Notes: a model not told the origin generated them from the sequence alone. A stretch of 64,000 bases of DNA from Burkholderiales bacterium (GCA_035543335.1 DASZZH010000025.1:184185-248184), one strand, 5' to 3'; shown: positions 2,454 to 48,248, numbered from the stretch's first letter. A program made the numbers and translations.

Positions 2454-2626
2454 TGGCGGAACAGGGCAGGCTTACGCACGCGGCGGAGATGCTGGAAATT
2501 AAAAGCTGAACCGCAAAGGACGCGAAGAAAAATCAAGTTTGGATGGCGCAATTCGAGCCCTGATCGGCTCCCCCAACAGAGCAAATCTGGCTGCTAAGGG
2601 TGGCGCTAAGCTAACGTTTAAGGTTA

Positions 2627-2903
2627 GCAGGGTGTTGAAAAACTCTCCGGGAGCCGCGTTTGACACGAAAAATGCTCAGATGCAAGGCGCGCGACGAAGG
2701 TCGTAGCCAGGACTACGATGCCGAGGAGCGCAACGCAGCATATGGGCATTTTTCGTGCAAACCCGGCTGGGGCGTGGCTTTCCGGGCGGTCTGCTTTGTC
2801 GCTCGCCTTGCGAATAGGCAACGGCTATTCGACGCGGCTCGCTTCGCGCATCCCATCCCGGAAAGCCGACGCCGTGGCCCCGTGGAGTTCTTCAACACCC
2901 TGC
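2627..2903. repeat. Repeat element E1 (277 bp), MITE-like or structured, with its own terminal inverted repeats
   Basis: Perfect 13-bp TIR GCAGGGTGTTGAA / TTCAACACCCTGC, about 22 bp with mismatches. Three internal blocks are shared with the element at 4350-4720. The right end abuts the gloA stop codon. Confidence 0.75.
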
Positions 2904-3292
2904 TAGCCGGGCTTCTTCTGGATGAACTCAATTTTGTAGCCGTCCGGGTCTTCGATGAAAGCGATCACCGTCGTGCCGTGCTTCATGGGTCCCGCTTCGC
3001 GCGTGACTTTGCCGCCGCGCTTTTTCACTTCCTCGCACGCCCGGTAGGCGTCCGGCACTTCGATGGCGACATGGCCGTAGGCGTTGCCGAGATCATATTG
3101 AGCGGTATCCCAGTTGTGAGTAAGTTCTAGCACCGCGGTGCGGTCCTCGTTGCCATAGCCGACAAACGCCAGCGTGAAACGGCCGTCGGGATAATCGTGC
3201 CGGCGCAGCACTTTCATATCCAATACCTGAGTGTAAAAATCAATCGACCGCTGCAGATTGCCCACACGCAGCATGGTGTGCATTATCCTCAT
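2903..3292 (-). CDS. gloA: Lactoylglutathione lyase (glyoxalase I)
   Basis: [20 protein letters not shown]...HVAIEV...IEFIQ is the typical GloA pattern. The start is placed at the conserved MR(I/L)(M/L)HTMLRV rather than at the longer track ORF. Confidence 0.9.
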
Positions 3293-3302
3293 TCTGGTCC
3301 CT

Positions 3303-3467
3303 TCAGATTTCCACCATCTCAAAATCTTCCTTGCGCGCGCCGCATTCGGGACAGGTCCAGTTTGGCGGAAGGTCTTCCCATTTTGTCCCCGGCGCAATGC
3401 CTTCTTCAGGCAAGCCCGCGGCCTCATCATAGATGAAACCGCAGATCAGGCACATATAAGTTTTCAT
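3303..3467 (-). CDS. Rubredoxin (54 aa)
   Basis: My manual translation gives [54 protein letters not shown], with two CxxCG knuckles. It is below the length cut-off of the ORF track. Confidence 0.85.
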
Positions 3468-3515
3468 GGGGCTCGCGGTTTAAGTTAAAATGCCATTTTA
3501 AACGAAATCCCCTGC

Positions 3516-4349
3516 ATGTCTCAGCCCCCGCCCATCGTGTTGTGCTTCGGCGCCACCGATCCTTCCGGCGGCGCGGGATTACAGGCTGACATCATGACGC
3601 TCTCCAGCATGGGCTGCCATCCCTTGTCCATTGTCACCGCCGTCACGATTCAAGACAGCGCGGGCGTGGAGGATTTGCTTGCGCTCGATCCGGAGTGGGT
3701 CGCCGACCAGGCGCGCTGTGTGCTGGAAGACATGGCGGTGTCCACGTTCAAGATTGGTTTGCTTGGAAGCGTGGAAATCACCGCGGCAATCGCCGAGGTC
3801 GTCTCGGACTATCCAGACATTCCGCTGGTGCTCGATCCGGTGCTGGCTTCGGGGCGCGGCGAGGAGCTTGCCAGCGAGGAAATGATTGCGGCGATGAAGG
3901 AACTTTTGATTCCGCAGACTACCCTGATTACACCGAACAGCATGGAAGCGCGGCGCCTGGCTCTGAAAGATAACAACGACAGCGACGACCCGGGCCTTTC
4001 CGAATGCGCGCAGCGGCTCTTGGACCTGGGCTGTGAATACGTGCTGATCACCGGCACGCATGAAAACACGCCGCAGGTGATCAACACGCTTTACGCGCAG
4101 GAGGGCGTTCTGCGCAACGATTCCTGGGAGCGGCTGCCGGGCAGTTATCACGGTTCCGGCTGCACTCTGGCCGCAGCGGTCGCGGCGACGCTTGCCAACG
4201 GCTTGAGCATTTCCGAGGCGGTGCGCGACGCGCAGGAATACACCTGGCATGCGCTGAAAGCGGCGTTCCGCCCGGGCATGGGGCAATACATTCCCGACCG
4301 CCTGTTCTGGGCGCGCGAAGAAGAAAATGGTGAAACCGGGCAGGATTAG
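3516..4349 (+). CDS. thiD: Hydroxymethylpyrimidine/phosphomethylpyrimidine kinase
   Basis: Ribokinase-like ThiD pattern: DPSGGAGLQADI, VLDPVLASGRG, and the C-terminal GSGCTLAAAVAA. Confidence 0.9.
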   Translation: MSQPPPIVLCFGATDPSGGAGLQADIMTLSSMGCHPLSIVTAVTIQDSAGVEDLLALDPEWVADQARCVLEDMAVSTFKIGLLGSVEITAAIAEVVSDYPDIPLVLDPVLASGRGEELASEEMIAAMKELLIPQTTLITPNSMEARRLALKDNNDSDDPGLSECAQRLLDLGCEYVLITGTHENTPQVINTLYAQEGVLRNDSWERLPGSYHGSGCTLAAAVAATLANGLSISEAVRDAQEYTWHALKAAFRPGMGQYIPDRLFWAREEENGETGQD

Positions 4350-4720
4350 GGAGCCTCTGATTAAGTCCTTCGTGAGCCGCGTTGCAGACAAAATGCGGAT
4401 GGATGTAAGGCGCGCGACGAAGGTCGTAGCTAGGACTACGACACCGAGGAGGGCCCGCGTAGCGTCGCACCTGCAAAGCTGTGCAGCGAAACGGGTCATA
4501 GCTCGCCGTATTACAGTTTCATGCACGGGCCAGCGCTCGCCTACGCGGTCGCACGTGCCGAGGCTCCACGCTTCGCGAGTCCAAGTCCGGGGCGCCTTTC
4601 CGGGCGGTCTGCTTTGTCGCTCGGCTTGCCAAGGGGAGTGACCCTTGGCTGCGCCTCGCTTCGCGCATCCCCTCCCGGAAAGCCGCCGTCGCAACCACGC
4701 GGGACCTAATCAGAGGCTCC
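4350..4720. repeat. Repeat element E2 (371 bp), same family as E1 but with different terminal inverted repeats
   Basis: 19-bp TIR GGAGCCTCTGATTAAGTCC / GGACCTAATCAGAGGCTCC with 1 mismatch. Shared blocks lie at 4407-4451, 4596-4629 and 4655-4688. It starts one base after the thiD TAG stop. Confidence 0.8.
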
Positions 4721-5334
4721 GTGGTCTTTACGCGATTACGCCCAACGAGGCCGACACTCCAAAGCTGATTCACCAGGTGAAACTCGCGCTCGAAGGCGGG
4801 ACGCGCTGGGTGCAGTATCGAAATAAAAGCGCAAACAACAAGCTCAGGCGGCGACAGGCGGAAGCGCTCGCCGCGTTGTGCAGCCAGTTCGGCGCCGCGC
4901 TCATCATCAATGATGATATCGAACTCACCCGGGCGTGCAATGCGCATGGCGCGCACCTGGGCCGGGAAGACGCATCGCTGGCGACCGCAAGAAGCTTGCT
5001 TGGGAAAAACAAAATCATCGGCGCATCGTGCTATGACCAGATCGAGCGTGCCATTGAAGCCGAAGCGCAAGGCGCGGATTATGTCGCCTTCGGCAGTTTC
5101 CATCCGTCTTCGGTCAAGTCCCACACTGTGCGGCCGCAAGTGCAATTGCTGGCCCAGGCCAGGACAAAACTTTCGGCGCCGATTGTGGCGGTTGGCGGAA
5201 TTACATTGGAAAATGCGGGCGTGTTGATAGAAGCGGGAGCGGACGCCGTGGCGGTCATCAGCGCCTTGTTCAACGCGCCCGACATCAAGACGGCGGCCAA
5301 AAAATTTAACTGCTTGTTTGCCAGCCGGCAATGA
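4645..5334 (+). CDS. thiE: Thiamine-phosphate synthase
   Basis: LRGLYAITP..., VQYRNK, INDD, and GGI..EN are ThiE patterns. The only in-frame start upstream of LRGLY is the TTG at 4645, with an AAGGGGAG SD, and it lies inside repeat E2. The start is therefore uncertain. Confidence 0.85.
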
Positions 5335-6611
5335 CCAACGAGGAATTATTTCAGCGGTCGCAGCAATTCATCCCGGGCGGCGTGAATTCGCCGGTGCGCG
5401 CATACCAATCGGTGGGCGGCGTTCCGCGCTTTATCGCACGCGGCCAGGGCGCGACGGTTTTGGACGCGGAAGGGAAAAGCTATATCGACTACGTCGGCTC
5501 GTGGGGGCCGCTGATAGTCGGCCATGCCCATCCTGAAGTGGTCGCCGCCGTGCAACAAGCGGCGGAACGCGGCTTGAGCTTTGGCGCCCCCACCGCAACC
5601 GAACTGGAAATGGCCGAGTTGCTGTGCAGGTTGGTACCCTCCATGGAGCAGGTGCGGCTCACCAGTTCCGGCACCGAAGCGACGATGAGCGCCATCCGCC
5701 TCGCGCGCGGCTTCACCCAAAGAAGCCGCATTATCAAGTTCGCCGGCTGTTATCACGGCCACGCCGATGCGCTTCTGGTCAAGGCCGGCTCGGGGGCGCT
5801 CACTTTCGGCCAGCCCGATTCCGCCGGCGTGCCCGTCGAGACTGCCGCGCACACTTTGGTACTTGAATATAACGACAGCGCAGCGGTGGAAAAAACCATG
5901 AGCGAATTCGGCAATCAAATCGCCGCGGTGATAGTCGAGCCGGTGGCCGGCAACATGAATCTGGTCAAGCCCAGGCCCGAATTCCTGCAAACGCTCCGGC
6001 GCCTCTGCACCCGACACGGCGTGCTGCTGATTTTCGACGAAGTGATGACCGGATTTCGCGTGGGCCTCGGTGGCGCGCAAGGGCTTTATGCAATCAAACC
6101 CGAACTCACCACGCTCGGGAAAATCATCGGCGGCGGCATGCCGTTGGGCGCATTTGGCGGCAGACGCGACATCATGCAATGGCTGGCGCCCCTGGGTCCG
6201 GTATACCATGCGGGAACACTCTCAGGCAACCCGGTGGCGGTGGCCGCGGGGCTCGCCACGCTTAAACTTGTTCAAGCGCCCGGTTTTTACCAAAAACTTT
6301 CCGGGGTGGCCGAACGTCTCACCGCCGGCTTGAGCGCCGCCGCCCACAAGCACGGACTGGCTTTTTCAGCGCAAGCCGCAGGCGGAATGTTCGGCATTTA
6401 TTTCCGCCCAAACCCGCCGCAAAGCTTTGCCGAAGTCATACAGTGTAACCAAGTCCTGTTTAACCGCTTCTTTCACGCCATGCTCGACCGGAGTGTTTAT
6501 TTTGCTCCTTCGGCGTTTGAAGCCGGCTTCGTTTCCAGCGCGCACGGCGACGAGGAAATCGCCGCCACGCTCGCCGCGGCGGAACAGGTTTTCGCCGGCC
6601 TTAAATCATGA
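5331..6611 (+). CDS. hemL: Glutamate-1-semialdehyde 2,1-aminomutase
   Basis: 426 aa with [19 protein letters not shown] and TLGKIIGGG (PLP lysine region). It overlaps the thiE stop by 4 nt. Confidence 0.95.
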
Positions 6612-7199: not shown

Positions 7200-8345
7200 C
7201 TACAGCGTGCCGTAGGAATGCAGGCCGCTCAGAAACATGTTGACGCCGAGAAAAGCAAACAGGGTGACGAATAGCCCCGCCACCGCCCACCAAGCCAGCA
7301 GCGCTCCGCGCAACCCCTTGACCAAACGGATGTGCAGCCACGCGGCGTAATTGAGCCAAACGATCAAAGCCCAGGTTTCCTTCGGGTCCCACGACCAGTA
7401 GCCGCCCCAGGCTTCCGCCGCCCACATCGCGCCGAGAATGGTGGCGATGGTGAAAAAAGCAAAGCCGATGGCGATGGCCTTGTACATCAAGTCATCCAGC
7501 ACCTCCGCTGGCGGCAGATAAGCGGCCAGTCTGCCTGCCGCCACCAGCAGATAAGCCACGCCTACCATTGCCGCGAGCGAGAACGAGCCGTAGCCGATGA
7601 AATTCGCCGGCACGTGGATTTTCATCCAGTACGATTGCAGCGCCGGCACCAGCGGCTGGATGTGCTGCGCTTCGCGGTCAAACGTGTACCACAAAAGAAA
7701 CCCCACCGCCGCGGTAATCACCGGCAGCACGAAAGCGCCGAGTTGCTTGGTCGCGTAACGCCGCTCGTAGTATAGGTACAACAGCGCAGTGATGATGCAA
7801 AACAGGATGAACACTTCGTACAGATTGCTGATGGGGATGTGCCCCACATCGGCTCCGATGAGATATGACTCATACCAGCGGGTGAGCATGCCGCTCAAAC
7901 CCATCGCCAGCGCGCTCCAGGTCAGGCCGCTGGCCACGCTGCCCGCAAAAGCGGAACGGGCGATAAGCGCAAGCCAGTAGGCAAAGGTCGCCATTACGAA
8001 CAACGCGCTCATCCACATGATGGCGGACTGGCTGGAGAACAGGTATTTCAGCCAAAACACCTGGCCGGCGCGGGCGAGACTGCCCTGGTACTCAAAAATC
8101 GAGAACAGGCTCGCTGCGGCGATGACCATGAGCAGGGTGCGCAGCGGCTTCCAGTACCAGCCCAGGACGCTGAATATCACTACGGCGCCCAAAAGGAAGC
8201 CTTTCTCGTAGGCATCCATGTAGTCGCCGTAGAGGCGCAACGCAGTCACCCCGCCCGTGATGAGCAGCAGCGCGTAGGCCCAGTCGAACCAGGCGAGGTT
8301 CTTGAAGAAAGACCTGCGCGCGGGATAGTCCTGGGTTAACTCCAT
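7200..8345 (-). CDS. ccsA: Cytochrome c biogenesis protein CcsA/ResC (System II)
   Basis: Polytopic membrane protein with the Trp-rich WGGYWSWDPKETWALIVW motif. The start is chosen at the ATG at 8345, just after the ccsB stop. Confidence 0.85.
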   Translation of the reverse strand: MELTQDYPARRSFFKNLAWFDWAYALLLITGGVTALRLYGDYMDAYEKGFLLGAVVIFSVLGWYWKPLRTLLMVIAAASLFSIFEYQGSLARAGQVFWLKYLFSSQSAIMWMSALFVMATFAYWLALIARSAFAGSVASGLTWSALAMGLSGMLTRWYESYLIGADVGHIPISNLYEVFILFCIITALLYLYYERRYATKQLGAFVLPVITAAVGFLLWYTFDREAQHIQPLVPALQSYWMKIHVPANFIGYGSFSLAAMVGVAYLLVAAGRLAAYLPPAEVLDDLMYKAIAIGFAFFTIATILGAMWAAEAWGGYWSWDPKETWALIVWLNYAAWLHIRLVKGLRGALLAWWAVAGLFVTLFAFLGVNMFLSGLHSYGTL

Positions 8346-8346
8346 T

Positions 8347-10374
8347 TTATTCCTTGATGAGTGCGGCGATTGCTTGCCGATGGCGCTCAAATTCGTGCTC
8401 GAAGTCCAGCGTCTTGCGGTTGCTGGACATGGCGAATAACAGATTACCGTGTTTGACCAACAACCAGATGCGGCGTTCCCGCAGGTAGAGCATGGCGAAC
8501 ACGCCCAGTACCAGCAGCACCGATCCGGTATATACGATATTCTTACCCGGCGAGCGGGTCAATTGCAGTCCGCTCGCCTTGACTTCCTGGTAGTCCGCGA
8601 GCTGCAGATAAACCGGTGCGCCGTAGATGAAGCTGTCGTTGATGGCATTCAAGGCGTCGCCCACAAACAGCACAGTCTGGTCGTTGATTGCCGCCGGCTT
8701 CAAGCCCGCGTCGCGGCGCACCATTTGCAGCGCCTCGACTGCCGCGCTTTGCAGAATCTTGACATAAATCGTTGCGACTTTCTCCTGCTCCAGCTGCGGC
8801 ACCGATTCCTTGAGAAACGCATCGAGCGCGGCATAGCCGTCGCGGACGAACATCTCCAGGACTTTTTCGGTGCTGGCAGTGAGCTTGCTACGCATGGTTT
8901 CACTCACCGCATCCCCCTGCATGGCGGTGGCCGCGAACCGGCGCGCGATTTCGTCCCCCGCCTTGGGGTCAAACAACAGCGCCCGCAGTTGCATGTAAGT
9001 GTCCAGCGTGCCCTGTTCATCCAGCGGCAGGCGCAAATAGCGGAACGGTTCGTTGGGATCGGAACGCACACCACTTAACATAAAGCCGCGATTATCGATT
9101 TGCACCGGCAGCATGTAGTTGTTGAATTCCATAGCCTGGCCTTGCGCGTCGCGAAGTTTATACTGGAAGCTCGGCCCGACATTGCGCAACTGTTTGTTGC
9201 CCTCAATATTCGCCGCGGGACCCAGCAATTTTCGCGAGAGTCCCGCTTCCTGGGGCATGTCGCGTCCGCCTATGTTCTCGACGTTGAACGGACGGAAGTC
9301 GGTGAATTCCACGTCGTATGCGTTGTTTTCCGTGACCAGGGGCGCCACCTCATGCACCTTGCCCTGCAATCGGGAAGGCTTGCTGGTTTTGGATAACAGC
9401 GGCCACACCTGGAGATTCAGGCGGGTGCCGCCGTCGGAAAAACTCGCCTGGTAAATGGCGACGCCCCGGTAAATCAGCGGGTGGTTGACGGTGATGGTGT
9501 GTTCAAAGGATTTCCCCGTTTCCCTGTCGGTCACGACCAAATCGCTGGCGAAGGTTTTGGGCTGGCCGGTGCTGTAATGCTCGATGTAAAACTTTTTCAC
9601 CCCGATGCCGAAGGGCAGCTCCTGCACCATGTAGCCGTCGCGCACGTTGAGGAACGCCACGTCGGCGCTTGCGCCTTCCGGGATGGTGACATTGCCGCGG
9701 AACGAAAGATTGGAAGAGGACAAGCGGCTTTGTGGCGGCACCTGGCTTTGCGGGACGTCGCGTGTTTCGATGGTTTTGTTCCCGAGCCATTCCTGCAGTT
9801 TCAACGGTACATTGCCGTCCATCAGCCCGCCGATGCAGATAATCACGACTGCCGCATGCGCGAAAATATAGCCCAGGCGCTGCAGGCTCTCGGTCTTTGC
9901 TGCAACCAGCAATCCATCCTGACCCGATGCATTGGTCTTGCAGCGATAGCCCCGGGCGCCGAGGTAAGCAGCGGCGCGCAGGGCTACCGCGTCCGGCTTC
10001 AATGCATGGGAGAACTCCGCGCGATGGGCGAACAGCCGTAAGGATTTTTCCGTTGCGTGCTCGCGGAAACTTCTCATCTCGCGCAGCATCAGCGGCCCGT
10101 TGCGGTAAACGCACAGGCTGGTGGAAGCGACCAGAAAACACAGTATCGCCAGAAACCAGCCGACATGATACACGTCATAAAGCCCGAGCTTCTCGAACAA
10201 GGCAAACCAGAACTGGCCGAATTGCGTGATGTAGTTGGGATACGGCTCGTTTTGCCGCAGCACCGTCCCTATCACCGAAGCGATGCCGAGCACGGTGAGC
10301 AGGCTGATGGCAAAGCGCATCGAGCTTAACAGCTCATACCAGGCTTGACTTAAATTAGAGGCAGGCTTGACCAT
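8347..10374 (-). CDS. ccsB: Cytochrome c biogenesis protein CcsB/ResB (System II)
   Basis: About 675 aa with N-terminal TM helices and a large periplasmic domain, located upstream of ccsA. The ATG at 10374 is preferred over the GTG at 10398. Confidence 0.8.
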   Translation of the reverse strand: MVKPASNLSQAWYELLSSMRFAISLLTVLGIASVIGTVLRQNEPYPNYITQFGQFWFALFEKLGLYDVYHVGWFLAILCFLVASTSLCVYRNGPLMLREMRSFREHATEKSLRLFAHRAEFSHALKPDAVALRAAAYLGARGYRCKTNASGQDGLLVAAKTESLQRLGYIFAHAAVVIICIGGLMDGNVPLKLQEWLGNKTIETRDVPQSQVPPQSRLSSSNLSFRGNVTIPEGASADVAFLNVRDGYMVQELPFGIGVKKFYIEHYSTGQPKTFASDLVVTDRETGKSFEHTITVNHPLIYRGVAIYQASFSDGGTRLNLQVWPLLSKTSKPSRLQGKVHEVAPLVTENNAYDVEFTDFRPFNVENIGGRDMPQEAGLSRKLLGPAANIEGNKQLRNVGPSFQYKLRDAQGQAMEFNNYMLPVQIDNRGFMLSGVRSDPNEPFRYLRLPLDEQGTLDTYMQLRALLFDPKAGDEIARRFAATAMQGDAVSETMRSKLTASTEKVLEMFVRDGYAALDAFLKESVPQLEQEKVATIYVKILQSAAVEALQMVRRDAGLKPAAINDQTVLFVGDALNAINDSFIYGAPVYLQLADYQEVKASGLQLTRSPGKNIVYTGSVLLVLGVFAMLYLRERRIWLLVKHGNLLFAMSSNRKTLDFEHEFERHRQAIAALIKE

Positions 10375-10440
10375 GATGCGGACAAAAGAGGGTGACACGA
10401 GTCACCCTTTTTTAGTTTCGTCGGGCGTTGAAAAAGAATT

Positions 10441-11148: not shown

Positions 11149-11185
11149 CCGTCGCAACCGCGCGGGATTTAATCAGAGGTTCTCC
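11149..11185. repeat. Solo copy of the E2-type right terminus
   Basis: CCGTCGCAACCGCGCGGGATTTAATCAGAGGTTCTCC compared with E2 4684-4720 CCGTCGCAACCACGCGGGACCTAATCAGAGGCTCC. It ends 4 nt before the engB TTG start. Confidence 0.7.
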
Positions 11186-11820: not shown

Positions 11821-11859
11821 AATAAAAAACCCCCGGCTAAAGGGGAGTAAAACCGGGGG
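11821..11859 (-). terminator. Hairpin plus U-run that reads as a terminator only on the minus strand
   Basis: CCCCCGG...CCGGGGG stem. The A-run at 11824-11829 on the plus strand gives a U-run for a minus-strand transcript. There is no U-run on the plus side. Confidence 0.4.
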
Positions 11860-12039
11860 CGAAACGCCTTAATAGGATTAAGGCACCCGCTCAGGGAGGA
11901 GAAGCGGGAGACGAAAAAAATCGTCTGCAATTGAGATTACTTCCCCAGCCCACAAGTTCCCCTCCCGATTAAAAAAAAACTATTTTACTATCAATTACTT
12001 ATTTCCACAAACGAAAGGGCATATGCATGGTGTAAGTAA

Positions 12040-45521: not shown

Positions 45522-45941
45522 ATGAAAACTCATCGCCAGGAATTGCTATTTAAAACCCCCACCAAGGAAGCGTTCATCAACATCACCCCGCAAGTCGAGG
45601 AAGCGCTGAAGGCAAGCGGCGTCAAGGAAGGACTGGTGCTGGTCAACGCGATGCATATTACCGCTTCGGTGTTCGTCAATGACGACGAGCGGGGCTTGCA
45701 CAGCGACTTTACCCGCTTTCTGGAGGGGCTTGCTCCCCACCAACCCATCAAGCAATACCGCCACAACGACACTGGCGAGGACAACGCCGATGCCCACATC
45801 AAGCGCCAGCTATTTGGGCGCGAAGTCGTGGTTGCAGTGACTTCGGGAAAACTGGATTTCGGCCCTTGGGAGCAGATTTTCTACGGTGAATTCGACGGCC
45901 GGCGTCCGAAGCGGGTGCTGGTAAAAATCATCGGGGAATAG
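45522..45941 (+). CDS. yjbQ: YjbQ/UPF0047 family protein (secondary thiamine-phosphate synthase)
   Basis: 139 aa. [18 protein letters not shown] and [24 protein letters not shown]. Confidence 0.85.
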
Positions 45942-46809: not shown

Positions 46810-46865
46810 GCGAATTTGACGGCCGCCGCTGCAAAAGGGTACTGGTGAAAATCATCGGGGAGTAA
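46810..46865 (+). pseudogene. Detached copy A of the yjbQ 3' end (56 bp, with its own TAA)
   Basis: It encodes ...[16 protein letters not shown]. It aligns to 45886-45941. Confidence 0.75.
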
Positions 46866-48130: not shown

Positions 48131-48248
48131 GCCGAAGTCGTGGTCGCCGTCACCGGCGGCAAGCTCGACTTCTGGCCCTGGGACCAGATTTTCTACGGCG
48201 AGTTCGACGGCCGCCGCCGCAAAAGGGTGCTGGTAAAGATTATCGGGG
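48131..48248 (+). pseudogene. Detached copy B of the yjbQ 3' part (118 bp, no proper stop)
   Basis: It encodes [38 protein letters not shown]. It aligns to 45819-45936. Confidence 0.75.

Follow-up and report, generated by a model that had tools for sequence, protein, structure and literature searches.

A 64,000-nucleotide stretch of Burkholderiales bacterium DNA (GCA_035543335.1, DASZZH010000025.1:184185-248184), referred to below as the window, carries two copies of a repeat, E1 and E2, whose interiors are alike, whose ends are entirely different, and whose two ends within each copy are complementary to each other. What kind of element keeps its core and changes its ends? The first-pass annotation of the region had offered two answers, namely a structured RNA or DNA module with a covarying closing stem, or one element nested inside two different miniature inverted-repeat transposable elements (MITEs). 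Our analysis suggested a different one, as E1 and E2 are very probably MITEs of the IS5 family of insertion sequences (IS) and represent two subfamilies that share one modular, strongly self-pairing core.

The statements of that annotation about E1 and E2 as one repeat family, including the positions of their three blocks, were all verified against the sequence. E1 comprises 275 nt (2628-2902) and E2 comprises 371 nt (4350-4720), and their homology is not restricted to three islands but extends across nearly the entire length, with the mismatch confined to the outer ~18 nt, in register. The common blocks are 2645-2731 and 4368-4454, 2771-2814 and 4589-4632, and 2834-2885 and 4651-4702. E2 is 371 nt long because 140 nt of foreign sequence replaces a part of the family model (Table 1). 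Inverted arms, confirmed with a repeat finder and by reading the sequence, close both copies, with 30 nt for E1 (2622-2651 and 2879-2908, 87% complementary) and 25 nt for E2 (4350-4374 and 4696-4720, 88% complementary). The terminus pattern of E2 was counted three times in the window, whereas shuffles gave an expectation of 0.00. Both copies also folded far better than their dinucleotide shuffles (z = -9.3 for E1 and -5.0 for E2).

The two copies belong to a widespread family. Genomes were scanned with a pattern made of the two strands of the imperfect part of the right hairpin (GGGCGGTCTGC followed by GCATCCCNTCCC at a distance of 40-70 nt), which returned at least 120 loci (numbered with L below). 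The hosts included Comamonadaceae (Comamonas, Acidovorax, Polaromonas, Rhodoferax and Variovorax), Rhodocyclaceae, Methyloversatilis, Nitrotoga, Nitrosovibrio, Thiobacillus, Methylophilaceae, Casimicrobiaceae and many metagenome-assembled genomes. The pattern derived from a Comamonas odontotermitis chromid, where a truncated class B copy (see below) located after ruvA was the single weak match of whole E1 and E2 in a plasmid collection and showed a hairpin with compensatory stem changes. An independent metagenome scan seeded on block 1 (CGCGACGAAGGTCGTAGC) gave at least 120 loci as well, and Betaproteobacteria genomes and metagenomes combined hold at least 240. When matches were extended to the outermost inverted repeat, two size classes of ~275 and ~165 nt appeared, and 39 full-length copies, E1 included, could be aligned on one plan from end to end (alignment A1). 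No autonomous copy bearing the core was found, since no locus has an extra pair of terminal inverted repeats (TIRs) around a transposase. A literature search with the genus plus MITE, IS5 plus MITE and motif strings, with ISfinder and Repbase outside its range, revealed no description of the family, whose status as undescribed is therefore provisional.

The ends of these elements fall into recurrent classes. Class A (TIR GGAACCTCTGATTAAGTCC and variants, ~275 nt) comprises E2 and most elements with block 1, class B (GA(A/G)C(C/G)TGTT(C/T)A..., mostly ~270-275 nt) occurs in Comamonadaceae, and class C (e.g., GGGATGCTCTGCATAAC and GGCAACGCTGAACAAGTCC) consists of short elements of ~165 nt. Class D (CAGG(G/C)TGTTGAAAAACTC, ~280 nt) includes E1, L076, L087, L144, L164 and L177, while a few loci make up class E (GGC(C/G)TGTTCAC, 175-275 nt). 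The class A terminus recurs in dozens of loci, and the terminus types recur across many unrelated genomes. The termini of E1 and E2 are indeed different and self-complementary, as first described, but they are not peculiar to a copy: each is the TIR of a recurrent subfamily.

These TIRs match the ends of real insertion sequences. Queries of 40 nt from the ends of three classes were compared with annotated plasmids. For class A, the matching IS was a 1.16-kb IS5-family element of Klebsiella plasmids with the end GGAACCAGTGATTAAGTCC, which is identical to the class consensus at 17 of 19 positions. For class D, it was an element annotated as "IS5-like element ISPst12 family" on a Pseudomonas aeruginosa plasmid, beginning with CAGGCCGTTGAAAAACTC and flanked by CTAA on both sides. 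For class B, it was an 849-bp IS5-family element with two open reading frames (ORFs) on Xanthomonas pXcc1, which runs from GAACCTGTTCACGATC to GATCGTGAACAGGTTC between two copies of TTA and has GAACCTGTTCACG in common with the class B copies L070, L071 and L112. Pfam annotations assigned DUF772 and DDE_Tnp_1 to the transposases matching classes A and D, and DUF4096 with DDE_Tnp_1/DDE_Tnp_1_2 to that of the Xanthomonas element. The similarity between element and IS ends after ~20 nt, and beyond that the core bears no likeness to the IS interiors. The supposed closing stem of an RNA or DNA module is therefore complementary because it consists of transposon TIRs, which are complementary by definition. 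In addition, the first-pass annotation had considered that the core might be the interior of a known IS and the ends separate, independently occurring repeats; the ends largely proved to be such repeats, but the core does not match the interior of the matching IS elements.

Target duplications pointed in the same direction. IS5 generates a 4-bp target duplication, and short IS5-family groups in the ISfinder classes generate one of 3 bp; the flanks of the two IS copies examined agree with a 4-bp (CTAA) and a 3-bp (TTA) duplication, respectively. Among class B copies, 21 of 33 are bounded by a perfect 3-bp direct repeat TNA (TAA, TTA, TGA or TCA). Classes A (for the most part), D and E are flanked by YTAR 4-mers, such as TTAA/TTAA in L076, CTAG/CTAG in L087 and CTAA/CTAA in L115 and L173, and in an unbiased set of class A elements the left and right 4-mers were equal in 9 of 51, compared with 3.4 by permutation (p = 0.003). 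For classes A and D, a 2-bp TA duplication of the IS630-like type is an alternative that the data do not completely distinguish from one of 4 bp; the latter was preferred because the matching IS elements belong to the IS5 family and have 4-bp CTAA repeats. The same target sites account for the position of the elements relative to genes. About one-third of the elements lie within a few bases of the 3' end of a gene, and both E1 and E2 touch a TAG stop codon (of gloA and thiD, respectively), as had been noted, because in genomes of 57-68% G+C most TNA and YTAR sites are stop codons. The target preference thus offers a simple mechanistic account of how repeats in G+C-rich genomes can "know" gene ends.

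Comparison with relatives revealed the sites before insertion. In the syntenic contigs L128-L131, identified via ThiD homologues of 89-94% identity, the E2 site is empty and the thiD/thiE overlap intact (...CAGGATTAG/TGGTCTTTAC..., with thiE as MNGRISGLYAITP), while the window has an insertion of 372 nt precisely behind the TTAG of the thiD end. The closest relative, L127, shares the E2 insertion, within which its contig stops, and lacks E1 beside gloA, where it reads TTAA/CCGGG..., so that the two insertions are of different age. Similarly, an orthologous site is occupied in Polaromonas L070 and empty in L112. E2 has altered a host gene: the native thiE start, ATG 4327, overlaps the thiD end as in the relatives and has been split off by E2, and for this reason E2 is not a regulatory element of the host. 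The sole in-frame ATG, GTG or TTG upstream of GLYAITP is TTG 4645 within E2, which follows a Shine-Dalgarno-like run AAGGGGAG; as a candidate start, it would append ~21 element-encoded residues to the thiE product. We also considered a recombination breakpoint at E2, since ThiD and ThiE share 92 and 59% identity, respectively, with those of L128, and found no support for it, as the fall in DNA identity is small (80 to 73%) and the gene order is maintained.

In the mechanism that we propose, E1 and E2 would be non-autonomous elements that derive from IS5-family DDE transposases and presumably depend on these for movement in trans. The transposase would bind the TIRs of ~18-20 bp and insert the element by a putative cut-and-paste reaction into YTAR (classes A, D and E, 4 bp) or TNA (class B, 3 bp). 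As most such sites in G+C-rich genomes are stop codons, the elements accumulate precisely at gene ends, and the duplication restores the stop. Exchange of modules among subfamilies would have taken place probably through recombination or gene conversion where copies share a genome.

The elements have a constant architecture. From 5' to 3', they consist of the left TIR, a short conserved run, the long left hairpin, a CCC-N4-GGG mini hairpin, the right hairpin and the right TIR. The core folds into a three-way junction with an extended closing stem, in which the conserved run C.CG.G.GCCGCGTTG is the partner of GCGCGGCC.CG.GG, located in front of the right TIR. The pairing of CTTTCCGGG with CCCGGAAAG pointed out in the first-pass annotation forms the base of a conserved hairpin, and the 22-nt internal stem of E1 proved to be the stem of a second one. 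The stem of the left hairpin differs among subfamilies yet always pairs, and its tip is exchangeable, block 1 being one tip variant. The mini hairpin is nearly invariant, as alignment A1 shows no change in its CCC or in the first two G, and only the third G varies. RNAalifold on the 39-copy alignment predicted 71 pairs, 56 of them with changes on both sides, and in helix 3, the stem of the E1 left hairpin, 17 of 19 pairs were changed on both sides. Paired cells reached 94.2%, against 38-46% when partners were slid by 1-3 columns; the covariation score was 0.51 against ~0.1, and none of 500 shuffles reached any of five measures. The stems of the highly structured core thus covary strongly across relatives, as anticipated, though TIRs and DNA palindromes yield an identical signal of compensatory change. 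The two halves of the core are themselves related, the left being an inverted and diverged version of the right. In many elements the reverse strand also matches the family profile, and the left tips of L087, L085 and L108 plainly represent the tip of the right hairpin in reverse complement. Copies that had not been chosen for the right-hairpin motif deviate from it at one position at most. In the metagenome set seeded on block 1, its halves are exact in 42 and 40 of 97 regions, and the remainder mostly shows one or two changes or an interrupted element.

Such a structure could also be that of a non-coding RNA gene, a cis-regulatory RNA or a structured single-stranded DNA signal that serves the host and is not mobile. 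The very strong fold of E1, the compensatory changes in 56 of the 71 pairs, the location of many copies directly after stop codons, the conservation of unpaired right-hairpin bases even in copies not selected for them and the conserved U·G in two columns would all fit this explanation. Nevertheless, we consider it very improbable, as the ends are IS5-family TIRs with target duplications, orthologous sites are empty in relatives, positions are not conserved between genomes and E2 disrupts the thiD/thiE overlap. Furthermore, elements between co-directional genes were equally divided by crude gene calls, with 18 in the same and 18 in the opposite orientation. Mismatch cells outside the two columns comprised 59 G·U, 67 A·C and 85 others; because G·U is no commoner than A·C, the constraint is Watson-Crick on both strands. 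No Rfam 15 covariance model matched E1 or E2, either in the whole window at the gathering score or in 2550-4800 at E <= 10, so the Rfam search suggested in the first-pass annotation yielded nothing for them, and no promoter- or terminator-like signal particular to the elements was found. The pairing constraint acts on DNA or on both strands equally, and a strand-specific RNA function is unlikely. The likeliest cause of the pairing constraint is selection for snap-back or cruciform folding that unites the ends, or template-switch correction of quasi-palindromes. Hammerhead and other ribozymes and attC sites, which the three-way junction and the bulged hairpin had brought to mind, were discarded as well, as no model matched and R/L boxes were absent.

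A related proposal places the elements with REP sequences or integron attC sites, as DNA hairpins that fold in single-stranded form and serve as substrates of a tyrosine (RAYT/Y1) transposase or an integrase. Strictly Watson-Crick, strand-symmetric pairing, conserved bulges in the imperfect hairpin and GTAG within block 1 speak in its favour. Although a RAYT or integrase gene was sought within the window ORF list alone, we regard the proposal as extremely improbable, as the ends match DDE-type IS5-family TIRs, the flanks carry the matching 3- or 4-bp duplications, 275 nt far exceeds the size of REP units, and the R and L boxes of attC are missing.

How, then, did one core come to lie between different ends? 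Simple nesting, in which the core was inserted independently into two pre-existing MITEs or TIR-only shells, was one of the initial proposals. It could draw on a 28-nt element that runs from TIR to TIR (L029), on the frequent nesting of other repeats in these elements (the interruption of E2; L134, L138, L142 and L144) and on the different affinities of the E1 hairpins described below. Against this, between-class homology is in register and reaches to ~20 nt from both ends, the junction of TIR and core has neither an inner TIR nor a duplicated target, and the closing stem (helices 1 and 2) crosses that junction with class-specific covariation. All classes, including class B with its other duplication length, share the same architecture and length, so that many identical events would be needed, and the outer "MITE" would consist of its TIR alone. 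Nesting is thus very improbable. The findings fit instead one modular superfamily of IS5-family MITEs in which parts such as the TIR class and the left-hairpin tip have been reshuffled, probably by recombination or gene conversion between co-resident elements, and the distribution of modules is consistent with such an exchange. Class D ends occur with the block 1 tip (E1, L076 and L164) and with an alternative tip (L087), and class A ends likewise (most copies with block 1; L085 and L108 with an alternative tip). E1 itself is a mosaic, with TIRs and left hairpin nearest to class D (0.86-0.96) and right hairpin nearest to class A (0.85-0.86), and the class A copies nearest to its right hairpin share its genome.

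Several observations weigh against the assignment of E1 and E2 to IS5-family MITEs. First, a transposase partner acting in trans in the same genomes is assumed: tblastn with three IS5-family transposases found none in the 64-kb window or in ~120 genome loci, and the matching IS elements come from Gammaproteobacteria plasmids. Second, the target duplications of the two copies are incomplete, as that of E1 is imperfect (TTAG/CTAG), and that of E2 is absent on the right, where GTGG stands in place of the expected TTAG and the inserted length is 372 nt. Third, part of the structural evidence is subject to qualification, since the search pattern itself imposed an invariant right-hairpin motif on the genome set, the orientation count used ORFs called from third-position G+C (GC3), and the U·G kept in two columns (33/39 and 16/39 sequences) hints at a strand-specific constraint. 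Finally, a single core of ~235 nt extends across subfamilies tied to two transposase architectures. MITEs are normally viewed as internal-deletion derivatives of one IS; a core shared across architectures is not expected of such elements, and transposition alone does not explain it. That this core is joined to ends from three or more IS5 lineages and two transposase architectures suggests modular exchange of ends and a constraint on the interior beyond transposition. Tentatively, the core might be a self-folding module that is selected in its own right, with conserved unpaired bases recognised by a host or element factor; it would be a hyper-parasite that has repeatedly switched TIRs to exploit several unrelated IS5-family transposases, and not the decayed copy of any single IS. 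We hold this to be possible but doubtful. If it were true, selection rather than recent common descent would explain the persistence of the junction from Comamonadaceae to Nitrosomonadaceae and Methylophilaceae.

The family was compared with known systems. It resembles IS5-family IS elements (the IS5 group with IS5 and ISPst12, and the short two-ORF IS427/IS1031-type) and the MITEs derived from them in its TIRs, and IS5-family MITEs also in YTAR/TNA duplications, small size, lack of a transposase gene, dispersed copies and insertion polymorphism. In contrast to ordinary MITEs, which arise by internal deletion of one IS, it has the same ~235-nt structured core across subfamilies. The Correia/NEMIS elements of Neisseria, the best-known betaproteobacterial MITEs, are likewise abundant in intergenic regions and have TIRs, a TA-containing target and long hairpins (PMC3184786), but their TIRs are different, and they measure ~104-157 bp and are restricted to Neisseria. 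A kinship suggested by common words such as GTCTGCGGC was rejected, as the family profile gave no nhmmer match to a Correia sequence, although this comparison is a weak test. BRE elements (TTTTGGCCGCGGGCCGCCCAAGGCAAAAAAGCCCCC..., 75-91 bp, often tandem and mostly intergenic) occur in Bordetella, Polaromonas, Acidovorax, Delftia, Rhodoferax and Azoarcus (Hot et al., 2011; PMC3110155), a host range overlapping with that of the present family, but their sequence is different. We considered BRE as a name for the right hairpin, which is ~90 bp long and found in the same hosts, and dismissed it because the published BRE list contains no motif of the family (PMC3110155). REP/BIME and ERIC sequences are similar in being intergenic, self-pairing and located after stop codons, and in being able to protect RNA 3' ends if transcribed (PMC3184786). 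REP units, however, are 20-40 nt long and tied to RAYT transposases, whereas the ends and duplications of the present family are of the DDE IS5-family type. A profile of the family would clean up annotation at stop codons and operon junctions in environmental Betaproteobacteria and explain odd starts such as that of thiE.

Table 1. Positions of E1, E2 and a related remnant in the window.
Feature	Position	Strand	Remarks
E1 left flank TTAG	2624-2627	+	Left copy of the putative 4-bp YTAR target duplication
E1 left TIR CAGGGTGTTGAAAAACTC	2628-2645	+	Class D; 16/18 identical to the ISPst12-like IS5-family end CAGGCCGTTGAAAAACTC
E1 left hairpin	2659-2762	+	Stem TTTGACACGAAAAATGC / GCATTTTTCGTGCAAA; the tip holds block 1 (2684-2728)
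E1 mini hairpin CCC-GGCT-GGG	2762-2771	+	At the junction
E1 right hairpin	2777-2867	+	Blocks 2 and 3; imperfect motif GGGCGGTCTGC (2784-2794) / GCATCCCATCCC (2848-2859)
E1 right TIR GAGTTCTTCAACACCCTG	2885-2902	+
E1 right flank CTAG	2903-2906	+	Right copy of the putative target duplication; reverse complement of 2903-2905 is the TAG stop of gloA (minus strand)
E2 insertion site TTAG	4346-4349	+	Includes the thiD stop TAG (4347-4349)
E2 left TIR GGAGCCTCTGATTAAGTCC	4350-4368	+	Class A; 16/19 identical to the Klebsiella plasmid IS5-group end GGAACCAGTGATTAAGTCC
E2 block 1	4407-4451	+	Tip of the left hairpin, without the descending half of that hairpin
Foreign 140 nt in E2	4452-4591	+	In place of family-model positions 104-147
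E2 right hairpin	4593-4686	+	Blocks 2 and 3; GGGCGGTCTGC (4602-4612), GCATCCCCTCCC (4666-4677)
E2 right TIR GGACCTAATCAGAGGCTCC	4702-4720	+
Solo class A right-end remnant, 35 nt, CCGTCGCAACCGCGCGGGATTTAATCAGAGGTTCT	11149-11183	+	88% identical to 4686-4719; between a cytochrome c gene and engB

The solo remnant listed in Table 1 is evidence of an older, mostly deleted insertion. Other sequences accompany the elements. The last ~30 nt of the interruption in E2, ending in CTCCACGCTTCGCGAGTCCAAGTCCGGGGCGC, belong to another repeat of ~130 nt, which is also present beside or inside elements in L047 (388-417), L060 (5580-5608), L132 and L142, in the last of these at the same internal position as in E2; apparently, this other repeat represents a further family, which goes along with that of E1 and E2 or targets it. 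A palindromic micro-insertion of ~18 nt, CCTCAGTTGGC(A/C)AATGAGG, recurs at varied positions, namely in the left tip of L050 and in the right hairpin of L136 and L140. The class D element of L144 (metagenome contig Ga0180104_1004783) is broken just after the mini hairpin by a long insertion unrelated to the family, as judged from its first ~200 nt. The 28-nt element of L029 (5441-5470) is made up of nothing but the two class A TIRs, joined back to back (GGAACCTCTGAC/TTAATCAGAGGTTCC), with TTAG on one side and TCA on the other, and may be either an extreme internal deletion or a footprint. Assemblies break at the elements as well, as a Logan contig and L127 both end there.

The surroundings of E1 and E2 showed further differences from the relatives. 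Where L127-L131 have rsmA-GGDEF-gloA, positions 1-2620 of the window, which reach the left edge of E1, are occupied by unrelated genes, namely one for a RecN-like C-terminus and two further ORFs, together with a terminator at ~2426-2447; E1 thus lies at a synteny breakpoint. A segment of ~2.8 kb at 7448-10298, with the minus-strand ORFs 7200-8558 and 8347-10401, is absent in L128, whose empty counterpart (6546-6553) is located between acetyltransferase and cytochrome c genes. Downstream of engB, adjoining an A/T-rich run, the Rfam search returned a full-length match to RF02837 anti-hemB (Burkholderia RNA 7) at 11822-11911 on the minus strand, with 76.5 bits against a gathering score of 49.5. 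In addition, a three-fold repeat (45821-45936, 46810-46860 and 48133-48248; 51-116 nt, 78-86% identity, spacing 924 and 1388 nt) probably reflects paralogous genes in tandem.

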